From a virus (lineage: Duplodnaviria > Heunggongvirae > Uroviricota > Caudoviricetes), in the IMG/VR virus record IMGVR_UViG_2636415673_000003: a stretch of 26,193 nt of DNA. One strand, given 5' to 3'. Shown piece by piece: positions 2,189 through 24,641 of the stretch. The position numbers and the translations under genes were made by a program. The notes beneath the pieces are model-generated. The model saw nothing but the letters and a program-made list of their open reading frames with translations. It had not been told where the DNA came from and made no database searches. Position 1 is the stretch's first letter, and each line of letters starts with the position of its first letter.

Positions 2189-3254
2189 TCCTTACTCTGG
2201 CATCAACCACATTAATATTGATCGCCACAGGCTGGGGATGTTCATTATCTTCCACCGTTTCGATCTCTTTGCGCAGCTTCTGGTTTTCCATTCTGCGCCG
2301 TTCAATTTCCAGTTCCTGTAGCCGCTTATCTGCACATAAAGCCCCGCCAGCAGAAAGCAAACGCAACAATTCACGCCGGGCGGCAGCCTTATCCTCCAGC
2401 AGGATCTCAACGCCGAATTTTCCGAATTTTGCCCCTGCATATAATTGCCGCGCATCCCCATCAAGCAGAGTGGTATCAGCCATATAAAGCTGTCCCGTTC
2501 CCTCACCGCAGCACTTCGGGCAGTCCGGATTGGGTATGGCGTTATCAACAAAGCCGAGGCCTCCATATTCCGGTTCGGGTTTGCCATCTCTGGAAGCCTG
2601 CGCCGCTGCCTTGTCGAATTCTGCTATATCGCGCCACTGGTAGAGATGATTCTCGCCCCAGCAATAACGGCAGTTAACACGGCGAAATTGTGCAAGCTGA
2701 TTGGGGTCGGCCAGGACAATGGCCATCAACTGACTCACTAGTAAATCCAGGTCTGCGGAATAGCGTTTCTGGTACTGATTGCGGAAGTAGCTGATAGCGC
2801 GAAAAACCCTGGCATTTCTAAGCATACGACTGGCGTTGCTATTAGCTGTCGCACCTTGCCCCTCATAACCGGCTAGTCGGTACGCCTCTGTCGGCTTTTT
2901 ACCCTGAGCAACAAGCATCGCAAACTTAGCCTGCTGGTCAGAAATGCCGAATTCATCGGGACAGAACGAAAATTCCTCCGCGTCGCCCTCATTCAGGCCC
3001 GCATCGAATACTGGCTTTTTTTCCTGAGATTTTTCGTTCCGCTTTTGTGCAGTCTGCGCAGATTTTTTCTGCGCACTTTTTTGCGCAGTTTTGCACATTT
3101 CTGTCTGCGCATTTTTCGGAGTTTTTTTGATGTAACGACGGGCTGTTGCGTAATTCAGTCCCCTTGCTTCACACCATGCCACCGGAGATATACCGGAGCG
3201 GGTGTATTCAGCAATATACTCCTGCTGCAACGCCCCCCAGTCCGGTCTGCTCAT
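2160..3254 (-). CDS. Terminase small subunit
   Basis: 364 aa ORF with an N-terminal HTH-like region and a FAMLVAQGKKPTEAYRLAGY motif typical of phage small terminases; its 3' end overlaps the TerL start. Confidence 0.75.
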   Translation of the reverse strand: MSRPDWGALQQEYIAEYTRSGISPVAWCEARGLNYATARRYIKKTPKNAQTEMCKTAQKSAQKKSAQTAQKRNEKSQEKKPVFDAGLNEGDAEEFSFCPDEFGISDQQAKFAMLVAQGKKPTEAYRLAGYEGQGATANSNASRMLRNARVFRAISYFRNQYQKRYSADLDLLVSQLMAIVLADPNQLAQFRRVNCRYCWGENHLYQWRDIAEFDKAAAQASRDGKPEPEYGGLGFVDNAIPNPDCPKCCGEGTGQLYMADTTLLDGDARQLYAGAKFGKFGVEILLEDKAAARRELLRLLSAGGALCADKRLQELEIERRRMENQKLRKEIETVEDNEHPQPVAININVVDARVRSDEDDLSDA

Positions 3255-9853: not shown

Positions 9854-10144
9854 TCACAAATATCCCTCCTTTCTCCAGATTTCTTGTGTGCGAAAAACAC
9901 CTTCTGCATGCATCAGGCGTAATTCTTCTTTGGTGTAATCGCTGGTTTTTACCCGCCCGTCGATTAGATCGTGGCATGAGCTACAGGCAATCGCCGCCTG
10001 CATATCGTGTGGTTTTGTCGCTGTTCCGCACGTTCCCGCCAGTCGGTAATGCGCCAGCACAGACGTTTCCGGATCGTGATTGCAGTAGCCAGGAATTCTG
10101 ACGGTGCACATCTGCCCCCGCGCCGCTTTACGTAAATCCACCAT
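9854..10144 (-). CDS. YbcO-like Cys-rich nin-region protein (DUF1364-type putative nuclease)
   Basis: 96 aa with Cys/His clusters (RIPGYCNHDPETSVLAHYRLAGTCGT...ACSSCHDLID), matching my recollection of DLP12 YbcO. Confidence 0.65.
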   Translation of the reverse strand: MVDLRKAARGQMCTVRIPGYCNHDPETSVLAHYRLAGTCGTATKPHDMQAAIACSSCHDLIDGRVKTSDYTKEELRLMHAEGVFRTQEIWRKEGYL

Positions 10145-10743
10145 TACGCAAACTCCAGCAGCTGCGCGGTCACATTTTCGACTTGTTCCGGAGAGGAAAA
10201 TTTACGGAACAGAATCCAGTTCCACAGCACATTCAGAACAGATTTATAAACCTGCTGAAACTCGGTTTCGTCCATATTCGCAAAAGCGATGGATTTCGCC
10301 CGACGCCCATGGCTACCATCAGGATAAAGATGCTCGGTGTAAAATCCGGCCTGAATGGTTACCCACTCGCGGAAAGCCTCAAACGACTTTAGCAATGCCG
10401 TATCCCGGGTTCTGCGTGTCGCAACTGTATTCAGATATTGCTCTGCGGCTTCGCTCAGAGCTGGCGTATGTTCCCGGCCTACTGATTCACATAGGTAATC
10501 AACGAATCCTGAAACCAGCTTTCGTTCGCGAGGCGTGATCGCCCCACCGACCGGAGTCCAGTAATCGAATCCCAGTTGCAGGAGTTTGAAAAAACGCTTG
10601 TGGAATGCGTAGTTACGCACACGCTTAAAGTCTGCGTGTATCCACTCGCCTATTTTGATTTGATGCAAAAAATCGCAACTCTCCGGCGTCGCCGGGAGAA
10701 GTAGTCCAGAAGAGGTTTGTTTGACCAGTTGTATATGCGCCAT
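10144..10743 (-). CDS. Conserved lambdoid nin-region protein (DUF1367-like)
   Basis: 199 aa ORF coupled to the ybcO-like gene (overlapping start/stop); family assignment is from memory only. Confidence 0.55.
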   Translation of the reverse strand: MAHIQLVKQTSSGLLLPATPESCDFLHQIKIGEWIHADFKRVRNYAFHKRFFKLLQLGFDYWTPVGGAITPRERKLVSGFVDYLCESVGREHTPALSEAAEQYLNTVATRRTRDTALLKSFEAFREWVTIQAGFYTEHLYPDGSHGRRAKSIAFANMDETEFQQVYKSVLNVLWNWILFRKFSSPEQVENVTAQLLEFA

Positions 10744-11021
10744 TTCTCAATCTCTCGATGGCGCAGTGCAGCAGATGCCAGTTGTTCAGGCTGACGAATA
10801 AAGTATAAATAAACTGGCTATGGTGTAAAGCTCCACATAACATGAACAAACACTACATATCAAATAGCTGATACAAGGATAGAAATACAACACTTATTAT
10901 TAAAAACGATTAGATAAATTACATTTTAATGTTATGAAAAAGTTCTTTTTTATCATAACATTTCAACAAAAGCATTACAGATGCACATCCCGTCATCATC
11001 AATTATTTAAGGTGGTTAAAC

Positions 11022-11108
11022 ATGGAAAATAACAACTATGCACATCTCGCTCCTTTTTTATCCGTAATCCTTTTCGCTGGCTGTTTTATATGGGCATTAT
11101 TTTTATAA
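11022..11108 (+). CDS. Small hydrophobic peptide (28 aa), possible type I toxin-like or small membrane protein
   Basis: ATG at 11022 with AAGGTGG 6 nt upstream. MENNNYAHLAPFLSVILFAGCFIWALFL has a polar N-terminus and a single TM-like C-terminus. Too short for the ORF track. Confidence 0.35.
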   Translation: MENNNYAHLAPFLSVILFAGCFIWALFL

Positions 11109-11181
11109 AGTAGCCGCATGATTAGTTTCTGGAATCATGTTTCCCACTCAAATCATTAACATTTGATAAGATATATCTAAA

Positions 11182-11243
11182 AGGATGCCTTTACATTATT
11201 TGATGCGTATATGATTTATTTATATGCACAGTAAAGGCATCCT
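11182..11243. repeat. 13-bp perfect inverted repeat (AGGATGCCTTTAC ... GTAAAGGCATCCT) separated by 36 nt
   Basis: Read directly from the sequence. On the minus strand it is followed by TTTT, so it may act as a terminator or a protein-binding palindrome. Confidence 0.5.
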
Positions 11244-11555
11244 GGAAATAATCAAGATTAATGATATATTGCTTATCTCATCCCCCACTGTCTTTCACCC
11301 GGAAAACATTTATCGTTAAAAATATATCATAAGTAATTAAATTGAAATTTCAGAACACAACTAATGCACACAATAAGATTCAGTAACAGTAATCTATGCG
11401 GACTATATCGAGATTTTTTAGTTAAACTTTAATAAGTTATTCCTAACACACAGAATGCACAAACTAAAAGTAAAACAAATAGTTATACGAAAAACAACCA
11501 TATTGATTCTATCTTCTCCTCTAATCAACATATCAATTATGTGTTTCATAACAGC

Positions 11556-11595
11556 TTGACATAACCCTCAAAAAGGTGCATTTATAATGCATGTT
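11556..11595 (+). promoter_or_regulatory. Promoter of the yeaR-like gene with an NsrR-type operator overlapping the -10
   Basis: TTGACA (11556-11561), TATAAT (11584-11589), and AAGGTGCATTT-A-TAATGCATGTT (11573-11595), which matches the NsrR inverted repeat (AAnATGCATTT-n-AAATGCATnTT) as I recall it. The 21-nt spacer is atypical. Confidence 0.5.
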
Positions 11596-11610
11596 TTATG
11601 GGAGGTGGTT

Positions 11611-11952
11611 ATGACACACAAGAGAATTCCTAAAGACTGGGTAATCAAACGCTCAACTCCGTTCTTCACAAAAGAGAACGTACCTTCAGCGTTATTAACA
11701 CATCATAATACAGCAGCAGGTGTTTTTGGACAGTTATGCGTGATGGAAGGTACTGTAACATATTATGGTTTTGCTGATGAGAATGCTACTGAACCGGAGA
11801 TAAAAGTAGTCATTAATGCTGGCGCTTTTGCAACAAGCCCACCACAATACTGGCACCGTGTTGAACTAAGCGATGATGCTCAGTTTAATATTAACTTTTG
11901 GGTAGCTCCAGACTTCTCAGGCGAAAAAGTCTATACCGCAAAAAAAGAATAG
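11611..11952 (+). CDS. YeaR-like protein (DUF1971 / TehB N-terminal-domain-like)
   Basis: GGAGG 5 nt upstream of ATG 11611. RSTPFF...CVMEGTVTYYGFADE...EPE...NAGAFATSPPQYWH...FNINFWVAPD resembles E. coli YeaR as recalled. Confidence 0.75.
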   Translation: MTHKRIPKDWVIKRSTPFFTKENVPSALLTHHNTAAGVFGQLCVMEGTVTYYGFADENATEPEIKVVINAGAFATSPPQYWHRVELSDDAQFNINFWVAPDFSGEKVYTAKKE

Positions 11953-12034: not shown

Positions 12035-12160
12035 TCAGAGCCTCCGTCTGCCAGTTCGGATTCGTACCTCGCAGAGGTCTTTCCTCGTTACCAGTGCCGT
12101 CACTATGACGGTTAAACAGATGACGATCAGGGCGATTAACATCGCCTTTTGCTGCTTCAT
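12035..12160 (-). CDS. hok: Hok-family type I toxin with truncated/divergent C-terminus (41 aa)
   Basis: MKQQKAMLIALIVICLTVIVTALVTRKDLCEVRIRTG matches the HokD/RelF N-terminus as recalled, then ends RRRL-stop instead of the usual ~15 further residues. A short upstream ORF ends in ATGA overlapping the hok start (mok-like coupling). Confidence 0.75.
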   Translation of the reverse strand: MKQQKAMLIALIVICLTVIVTALVTRKDLCEVRIRTGRRRL

Positions 12161-12330
12161 AGCCTGCTTCTCCTTGACCTTTCGGTCCGTAAGAGGCTAA
12201 TCTCTATGTGTCGCATAGATATGGCCTCAGATTAATGTTAAACGTCTTGCAGGACGCGTAATGTTAACTGGGGCTTTTCTCTATCTACCTTTGGTGTTCA
12301 TGCCCGAGGCAGATAGCCTCAAGCACCCAC
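12161..12330. promoter_or_regulatory. hok mRNA leader / mok-like frame / expected Sok antisense RNA region
   Basis: By analogy with hok/sok loci, Sok is encoded antisense to the hok leader; the exact promoter and terminator were not resolved by eye. Confidence 0.35.
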
Positions 12331-24265: not shown

Positions 24266-24460
24266 ATGAGATATGACAATGTTAAACCATGTCCATTTTG
24301 TGGTTGTCCATCAGTAACGGTGAAAGTCATTTCAGGATATTACCGAGCGAAGTGTAACGGATGCGAATCCCGAACCGGTTATGGTGGAAGTGAAAAAGAA
24401 GCACTCGAAAGATGGAATAAACGAACCACTGGAAATAATAACGGAGGTGTTCATGTATAA
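24266..24460 (+). CDS. ralR: RalR (Lar) restriction-alleviation protein / type I toxin DNase
   Basis: MRYDNVKPCPFCGCPSVTVKVISGYYRAKCNGCESRTGYGGSEKEALERWNKR... (64 aa). Confidence 0.9.
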   Translation: MRYDNVKPCPFCGCPSVTVKVISGYYRAKCNGCESRTGYGGSEKEALERWNKRTTGNNNGGVHV

Positions 24461-24641
24461 AATTACCGCCACTATTGAAAAGGAAGGTGGCACTCCTACT
24501 AACTGGACAAGATATTCAAAATCTAAACTAACGAAATCAGAATGCGAAAAAATGCTCTCAGGTAAAAAAGAAGCAGGCGTTTCCAGAGAGCAGAAAGTAA
24601 AACTGATAAATTTTAATTGCGAGAAACTTCAGTCCTCGTGA
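24453..24641 (+). CDS. ydaC: YdaC (DUF1187-type) small protein
   Basis: MYKITATIEKEGGTPTNWTRYSKSKLTKSECEKMLSGKKEAG...; ACGGAGGTG upstream; overlaps the ralR stop. Confidence 0.8.
   Translation: MYKITATIEKEGGTPTNWTRYSKSKLTKSECEKMLSGKKEAGVSREQKVKLINFNCEKLQSS

Follow-up and report, generated by a model that had tools for sequence, protein, structure and literature searches.

The type I toxins of enterobacteria include Hok/Gef, Ldr, Ibs, ShoB, TisB, ZorO and DinQ. Small regulatory proteins of the E. coli inner membrane form another class, represented by MgrB, MgtS, AcrZ, PmrR and YohP (see also PMC12648545). Morons are recognized in phage genomes as DNA that is extra with respect to related phages and of divergent base composition, with a promoter and a terminator of its own and expression from the repressed prophage; gp15 of HK97, a small inner-membrane exclusion protein, is an example (PMC3594210). 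The DNA analyzed here is a 26,193-nt stretch (the window; IMG/VR record IMGVR_UViG_2636415673_000003), which is a Rac-like lambdoid prophage with 100% identity to prophages of many clinical E. coli. Between its DUF1367 and DUF1971 genes lies an AT-rich gap that contains an open reading frame (ORF) of 28 codons. As judged from sequence comparisons, this ORF is a real, selectively conserved gene, previously unannotated. It is interpreted here as a stand-alone, moron-like gene of Escherichia and Shigella lambdoid prophages that would encode a C-terminally anchored inner-membrane peptide, a reading that is held with slightly more confidence than doubt.

The functional unit was delimited as a 216-bp cassette (10893-11108), made up of a near-invariant 44-nt block, an 85-nt leader with an inverted repeat (IR1), a strong, accessible Shine-Dalgarno (SD) sequence and the 28 codons. 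Cassettes were collected from IMG/VR with a pattern derived from the upstream block alone, which avoids circularity, and 132 were long enough for analysis, including the window and annotated loci. The ORF was intact at 28 codons in all 132, which represent 17 DNA haplotypes and 15 peptides, each of 28 residues. Variable sites were distributed over codon positions 3, 2 and 1 as 17, 9 and 6 (binomial p=0.016). The pN/pS ratio was 0.30 in the frame of the ORF and at least 0.6 in the other frames, save for the antisense frame that shares its wobble positions (0.36), which has stops in 15 of the 17 haplotypes. At least 39 substitution events were counted, 19 synonymous and 20 nonsynonymous, for an expected synonymous share of 25% (p=0.0012); none of the 39 was a nonsense, start-loss or stop-loss change, classes that account for 9.6% of the possible changes (P=0.02 under neutrality). 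No indels were found in the ORF and at least five in the leader. Alignments of APEC O1, a chicken isolate and phage vB_EcoS-683R6 (683R6 below) showed the same 28-codon frame, start and stop, with many wobble differences. The ORF is regarded as a conserved gene because length, frame, start, stop and SD sequence are kept across diverged copies that also show an excess of synonymous change.

Other small ORFs of the gap had lost their starts or altered their length among close relatives. Two overlapping ORFs were rejected: that at 10934..11032 (plus strand) differs in sequence and length between cassette types, and that at 11036..11119 (minus strand) has stops in 15 of the 17 haplotypes. The 43-residue ORF at 11418..11549 (minus strand), listed as a hypothetical protein in phage ON470614, has 43, 48 or 51 residues among relatives, with mostly nonsynonymous changes, and is probably not a gene.

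In the encoded peptide, residues 1-9 form a polar N-terminal head and residues 10-28 a predicted C-terminal transmembrane segment. The Kyte-Doolittle mean of residues 10-28 is 2.3 in the window copy and 2.3-2.6 across all variants, the usual threshold for a membrane segment being 1.6. Eighteen of the 28 residues are invariant (M1, E2, N3, N4, A7, H8, P11, F12, L13, S14, I16, L17, F18, C21, W24, A25, F27 and L28). The SD sequence is kept at the same spot in all cassette types, relatives having AAGGTGAG, AAAGTGAG or AAGGTAGT. The sequence-only reading of this DNA had described a 28-residue peptide with a strong ribosome-binding site and a C-terminus like a transmembrane segment, in an AT-rich stretch without long ORFs, and was borne out in these respects. 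The G+C content of the gap is 31% (whole window, 45.5%), and its ORFs reach at most 43 residues on both strands, the exceptions being the 5' end of the DUF1367 gene and an overlapping 74-residue ORF with a TTG start (10625..10849).

The NCBI annotation pipeline (PGAP) placed no feature in the gap, either in the matching record or across the genomes sampled. Common gene callers use a minimum of 90 nt; the ORF, at 87 nt, falls just below it, which would explain the missing annotation in the RefSeq and GenBank records inspected. Searches of NCBIfam, Pfam, PHROGs and PADLOC with three variants of the peptide gave nothing, or sub-threshold chance matches only, and the models for Hok, Ldr, Ibs, ShoB, TisB, Zor and DinQ did not match it. 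An exact look-up of four variants in a collection of 15 billion proteins, which evidently does not hold proteins below 30 residues, returned none. The accessible text of a preprint on small proteins of CFT073 describes other peptides. Within the searches made, the peptide is without known family, annotation or paper, and its kind is that of the prophage-borne small membrane proteins. A lipoprotein or Rz1-like spanin was considered and rejected: the match to PHROG 6073 (E=0.009) covers residues 9-22 only, and there is no positively charged n-region. The lipobox F-A-G-C occurs in the window variant only, the residue ahead of the Cys being L, F, C or S in the others, and is thus not conserved.

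The distribution of the cassette was determined by blastn with positions 10900-11260, which matched 1241 places in 1175 of 5426 complete E. coli genomes. Nearly the whole query was matched in 464 genomes, whereas about 700 matched only query positions 1-210 (10900-11109), at 72-74% identity. These partial matches end at the stop codon of the ORF, and there is no homology between cassette types beyond it. A query with the block and IR1 from which the ORF was excluded (10870-10965) matched 1177 genomes and 1241 places; since both queries gave essentially the same set of genomes, block and ORF always travel together. About 22% of the complete E. coli genomes, roughly one in five, carry the cassette, with a median of one place per genome. 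In a scan of one genome per species it was found in S. flexneri and E. ruysiae, and its occurrence was confined to Escherichia and Shigella; a match in a metagenome-assembled genome was a chance match in G+C-rich DNA. Four of 50,697 phage records carry it, all four being induced E. coli prophages. A tblastn search of plasmids gave no true plasmid, the two records matched (NZ_CP141089.1 and NZ_OL790696.1, 4.8-4.9 Mb) being evidently mislabelled chromosomes. In the Qin prophage of K-12 the cassette is absent from the equivalent hok/nin junction. By these counts the cassette is DNA extra to related phages, as in morons.

Three downstream contexts were found. A convergent hok gene adjoins 77 of the 132 cassettes, its coding end lying 107-112 nt from the stop of the ORF; in the APEC O1 type the intervening hairpin is called as a terminator in the direction of hok only, and no terminator was found there on the plus strand. 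The 683R6 type has a 15-bp intrinsic terminator 14 nt past the stop and no hok annotated within 3 kb. In the window type the DUF1971 gene and its spacer separate the ORF from hok, with 926 nt intervening; DUF1971 lies within the stored 700-nt segment in 17 of the 132 cassettes. As the three contexts are unrelated, the gene is autonomous. IS186 was found inserted in the adjoining hok locus in at least nine of the 132 cassettes. The IS186 end (CATAAGCGCTAACTTAAGGGTT) lies inside the G+C-rich 3' hairpin of the neighbouring hok, about 95 nt past the stop of the small ORF, which is intact; the same terminal repeat was verified at both ends of IS186A, which adjoins hokC in K-12.

The coordinates of the cassette and of the surrounding features are given in the table below. 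The G+C content of the cassette is 28%, as compared with 50% for DUF1367 (the flanking nin gene), 49% for hok/sok and 45.5% for the window, a divergence in base composition that is a further mark of a moron. Identity of the window type to the other types is 89-95% in the block, 78-80% in the ORF and 54-60% in the leader. The promoter, the 5' end of the leader or both probably lie within the block.

Features of the small-ORF cassette and its surroundings, in window coordinates
Feature	Position	Strand	Remarks
Lysis genes, Q-like DUF1133 gene, DUF1364, DUF1367	DUF1367, 10144..10743	-	Annotation converted to window coordinates
Gap with the small ORF	10744-11610		Between the DUF1367 and DUF1971 genes
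Near-invariant AT-rich block, 44 nt	10893..10936	+	CTTATTATTAAAAACGATTAGATAAATTACATTTTAATGTTATG; 16% G+C; most conserved part of the cassette
Candidate -10, TATTAT	10895-10900	+	Paired with TTGCTG at 16 nt in other types
Candidate promoter, TTATTA-17-TACATT	Ends 10925 (TACATT, 10920-10925)	+	Rough weight-matrix scan
IR1	10928..10962	+	Perfect 10-bp arms, 10928-10937 / 10953-10962; 59 nt 5' of the ATG
Candidate promoter, ATGAAA-16-TAACAT	10934-10961	+	Overlaps the arms of IR1
Variable part of the leader	10963..11008	+	Substitutions and indels between types; all indel columns fall here
Shine-Dalgarno sequence, AAGGTGG	11009-11015	+	6 nt 5' of the ATG
28-codon ORF	11022..11108	+	Encodes MENNNYAHLAPFLSVILFAGCFIWALFL
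AT-rich spacer, 502 nt	11109..11610	+	Belongs with the DUF1971 gene; parts the peptide gene from hok/sok
IR2	11182..11243		62-nt imperfect palindrome; perfect 13-bp outer arms, 11182-11194 / 11231-11243; 36-nt loop
DUF1971 (YeaR-like) CDS	11611..11952	+	Annotation converted to window coordinates
Hok/Gef CDS	12035..12160	-	Right of the DUF1971 gene
KilA-N gene	Beyond hok/sok	+
Replication and immunity genes	Beyond KilA-N	-

The two inverted repeats had been described as a perfect 10-bp repeat about 60 nt upstream of the peptide gene and a 13-bp repeat downstream of it. Both are present (IR1 and IR2 in the table), but they do not bracket a single unit: IR1 is internal to the cassette, and IR2 sits in the DUF1971 spacer, past the stop codon at which homology ends. 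In 1000 dinucleotide shuffles of the gap, perfect repeats of at least 10 bp (loop 3-40) occurred in 7.7% and of at least 13 bp in 0.3%; IR1 alone is unremarkable and IR2 is beyond chance. Folding z scores were -3.6 (plus strand) and -3.3 (minus strand) for IR1, and -6.8 and -5.7 for IR2, so that the two repeats fold better than shuffled sequence. IR1 extends to 14 nt at 93% (10928-10941 / 10949-10962), and the part shared across types is an 8-bp core only (ATGTTATG/CATAACAT). Its left arm is the end of the invariant block, and a single haplotype has it altered (ATGCTATG); the right arm reads CATAACAT, CATAATAT or CATAGCAT, with pairing kept, through G.U and U.G pairs, in plus-strand RNA only. 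A strong 15-bp IR1 hairpin is found in the window lineage and in one divergent copy, the APEC O1 and 683R6 types being marginal (z = -1.2).

IR2 is restricted to genomes with the DUF1971-type spacer (roughly 464), and is outside the peptide cassette. Its arms in relatives (AGGACGCC/GGTATCCT, AGGATGCC/GGTACCCT and others) carry mismatches that are uncompensated on either strand. On this comparison IR2 is a real, lineage-specific, decaying structured element of the DUF1971 spacer. Neither repeat was called by the terminator scan, and both were rejected as intrinsic terminators: IR1 is A+U-rich, and in IR2 the loop is 36 nt long, the plus strand lacks a U-tract and the minus strand has only UUUU. 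Directly 3' of IR2, a 56-nt segment (11245-11300) is present in some relatives and cleanly missing from others; short repeats that resemble each other (CCTGGAAA / CCCGGAAAA) form its edges, which would fit a deletion by slippage.

The small ORF points rightwards, opposite to the early-right operon of the prophage (replication, nin and Q genes). From this orientation we infer that the cassette would be transcribed from its own promoter in the repressed prophage of a lysogen, and that on induction the read-through of the early-right operon, antisense to the ORF, would silence the gene. The polar head (M-E-N-N-x-x-A-H) would probably be cytoplasmic and would be followed by a hydrophobic helix of 19 residues, among them the invariant P11, C21 and W24, by which the peptide would insert into the inner membrane and act on a membrane target there. 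The target may be an incoming phage, a host membrane protein or Hok, and the peptide may serve to exclude other phages, to modulate a host membrane protein or to exert mild membrane toxicity. Conservation of the polar head argues for a specific interaction over generic membrane damage. Sequence comparison establishes the conserved coding gene, the limits of its cassette, where it occurs and what surrounds it; promoter, expression in the lysogen, topology and activity are predictions of this model, drawn from sequence features.

Several observations weigh against the moron-like reading. Conservation is higher in the upstream block than in the ORF, so that something beyond the peptide is constrained in the block. 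A consensus promoter scan of the plus strand of the gap gave no site over threshold in the window, and the promoter candidates of the table come from a rough position-weight scan that left three competing weak plus-strand candidates, none proven. The best candidate of the other types, TTGCTG-16-TATTAT, has its spacing broken in the window by an 8-nt insertion, and the terminator scan found no plus-strand terminator after the ORF in the window copy. A full-text literature search for the peptide sequence found none, and the small-ORF supplements for the enterohemorrhagic strains Sakai and EDL933 are without this peptide. The selection statistics are supportive and not overwhelming, given 17 haplotypes from one genus and about 39 events that share ancestry.

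The peptide had also been likened to type I toxins or small membrane regulators, with room left for a small-RNA antitoxin. What stands of this is a gene for a small single-pass membrane peptide (28 residues, within the limit of 60 for such toxins) in a gap without a long ORF; the type I features tested gave nothing positive, and no conserved antisense promoter with a terminator was found. A type I system, in which the peptide would damage the membrane and a minus-strand antisense RNA across the leader would restrain its mRNA, is thought doubtful, and so is its corollary that the block is near-invariant because both RNAs overlap there. The size, the hydrophobic helix, the AT-rich unannotated setting and the prophage location fit it, as does the usual immediate neighbour, a genuine type I locus (hok/sok). 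An antisense RNA over leader and block could also account for the block being better conserved than the ORF. Over the start codon the 683R6 and APEC O1 types have a promoter-like minus-strand site (TTTCCA-16-TATGAT or CATAAT) with a -35 that is the reverse of the start codon, the window equivalent being TTTCCA-15-AATAAT, yet such sites are no commoner than in shuffles and the best minus-strand site varies by type. The block of the same two types contains a small minus-strand hairpin with a T-run, for which the most divergent copy has one compensatory change (CGCTT/AAGCG to CACTT/AAGTG); its stem is only 5 bp and is broken in the window. A scan found no minus-strand terminator in the window, a computation that is of limited power in DNA of 28% G+C, and the short direct repeats of the window copy are missing from the other cassette types. 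Rfam, at gathering and permissive thresholds, gave no family for the cassette, the only matches being sok and RalA, both elsewhere in the window, and chance matches on the two hairpins; the toxin-family searches (NCBIfam, Pfam and PADLOC) were likewise without a match. The unpaired probability of the SD sequence was 0.21-0.59 in four cassette types, within or above the distribution of shuffled leaders, and the fraction of shuffled leaders at or below the observed accessibility was 0.18-0.97 (for the window type, given both as 0.68-0.86 and as 86-97% of shuffled leaders exceeded). In none of the four types does the leader sequester the SD sequence beyond chance. A possible helix of the right arm of IR1 plus CACC, as an anti-SD, with the SD-proximal region, seen by RNAalifold and with one covarying pair, was rejected as an established feature, accessibility not being under that of the shuffled controls. 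Nor are there tandem copies, and all 132 ORFs are intact, yet IS186 struck the adjoining hok at least nine times. A wider form of the same idea, that the cassette and hok/sok make up a composite killing or exclusion module in which the peptide is a second membrane toxin with a cis-antisense RNA or a modulator of Hok, is considered unlikely; convergent transcription into the 3' end of hok could link the two.

The position of hok may also be read at the RNA level, the cassette being mainly an RNA partner of hok/sok whose convergent transcript alters the processing of hok mRNA, with the peptide secondary. Such a role would suit the fixed distance to the convergent hok and the intervening hairpin, which, as a terminator on the hok strand only, would let the cassette transcript run into the hok 3' end. 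It is judged quite improbable: cassettes without an adjoining hok exist (the 683R6 type with its own terminator, and the window), and coding selection on the ORF is left unexplained. That selection also bears on the view that the peptide has no function; the ORF would then merely accompany a conserved non-coding element, or be neutral sequence that spread recently, and would be intact through low divergence. The few haplotypes from one genus and the greater conservation of the upstream block are what this view would expect, and annotation bears neither way on an ORF below the 90-nt minimum of gene callers. The synonymous excess, the third-position bias, the lack of disruptive changes, the confinement of indels to the leader, the fixed distance of the SD sequence and the decay of the other gap ORFs, as expected for non-coding DNA, speak for a functional peptide and make its absence an outcome of low probability. 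A leader peptide or upstream ORF controlling DUF1971, with IR2 as attenuator, is scarcely credible. The ORF is on the same strand, about 500 nt 5' of DUF1971, with a large hairpin between, but most cassettes have no DUF1971 downstream, so that the comparative contexts largely refute it; IR2 moreover decays in relatives and is without a plus-strand U-tract, and DUF1971 has its own TTGACA, TATAAT and operator-like palindrome (11556-11595).

Upstream of DUF1971 the TTGACA (11556-11561) and the TATAAT (11583-11588) are separated by an over-long spacing of 21 nt. The -10 is overlapped by an 11-1-11 palindrome at 11573-11595 (AAGGTGCATTT-A-TAATGCATGTT; in a relative, AAGATGCATTT-T-TAATGCATGTT), which closely resembles the NsrR operator of K-12 hmp (AAGATGCATTT-G-AGATACATCAA) and a site 5' of the chromosomal yeaR. 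This suggests that DUF1971 is a nitric-oxide-responsive prophage gene. The arms of IR2 (AGGATGCCTTT) each agree with the NsrR half-site AAGATGCATTT in 9 of 11 bases, with the arms about 40 bp apart instead of 1; by estimate, chance alone would give about 0.2 matches of this quality in the gap, and this is a weak lead only. The spacer also contains two direct repeats of 28 nt (11349-11376 / 11440-11467; 75% identity, 91 nt apart, centre AATGCACA); ATGCAC is met again at 10981, 11038 and 11225.

The hok/sok locus is complete at 12035-12328 (minus strand), with sok matched by Rfam at 12158-12328 (101 bits). This type I toxin-antitoxin locus is convergent with the DUF1971 gene, whose stop lies 82 nt from it. 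RalA, the RNA antitoxin of the RalR/RalA type I system of the Rac prophage, gave a full-length Rfam match at 24459-24637 (minus strand, 225 bits). About 60 nt 5' of the DUF1367 start, a promoter-like sequence, TTTACA-16-TATACT (10 of 12 matches; 10829..10802, minus strand), is kept in phage 683R6 (3086..3059) and in APEC O1 (2937..2910), and may serve the nin/Q gene block as an internal promoter.

About a fifth of complete E. coli genomes carry the gene, clinical lineages from urine and the bloodstream among them; it shows purifying selection and adds a concrete and easily testable candidate to the catalogues of small membrane proteins and of prophage morons. Its usual tail-to-tail position with hok/sok offers a simple genetic handle on whether small peptides of prophages and type I toxins cooperate. 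Should the peptide be inert, the near-invariant 44-nt block would still be an unexplained conserved element; should the composite module exist, it would represent a new toxin family below the length limit of gene callers in a fifth of E. coli genomes.

Like the type I toxins of enterobacteria, the peptide is hydrophobic, within the range of 20-50 residues, predicted to form one helix, unannotated, AT-rich and carried by a mobile element, and it adjoins a real hok/sok. Unlike them it has no family match, no demonstrable antisense or divergent small-RNA gene and no SD-sequestering fold beyond chance, and it occurs in single copy; its conserved polar head also differs from the charged C-terminal tail common in many type I toxins. 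With MgrB, MgtS, AcrZ, PmrR and YohP it shares the size class, the single (here predicted) transmembrane helix, a strong SD sequence and the failure of automated annotation to find it. Those proteins are encoded by chromosomal core or stress-regulon genes, whereas the peptide belongs to an Escherichia/Shigella prophage cassette without a known partner or regulator. HK97 gp15 and other morons have no sequence similarity to it, and at 28 residues it is far under typical moron size; its promoter is a candidate, it is known here from sequence alone, and the site of the cassette is the hok/nin junction and not the tail operon. Like gp15 and other morons, the cassette is an add-on gene of lambdoid prophages with a G+C content unlike its flanks and a small, here predicted, inner-membrane protein as product, and its orientation permits expression independent of the surrounding operon, one cassette type having a terminator of its own.

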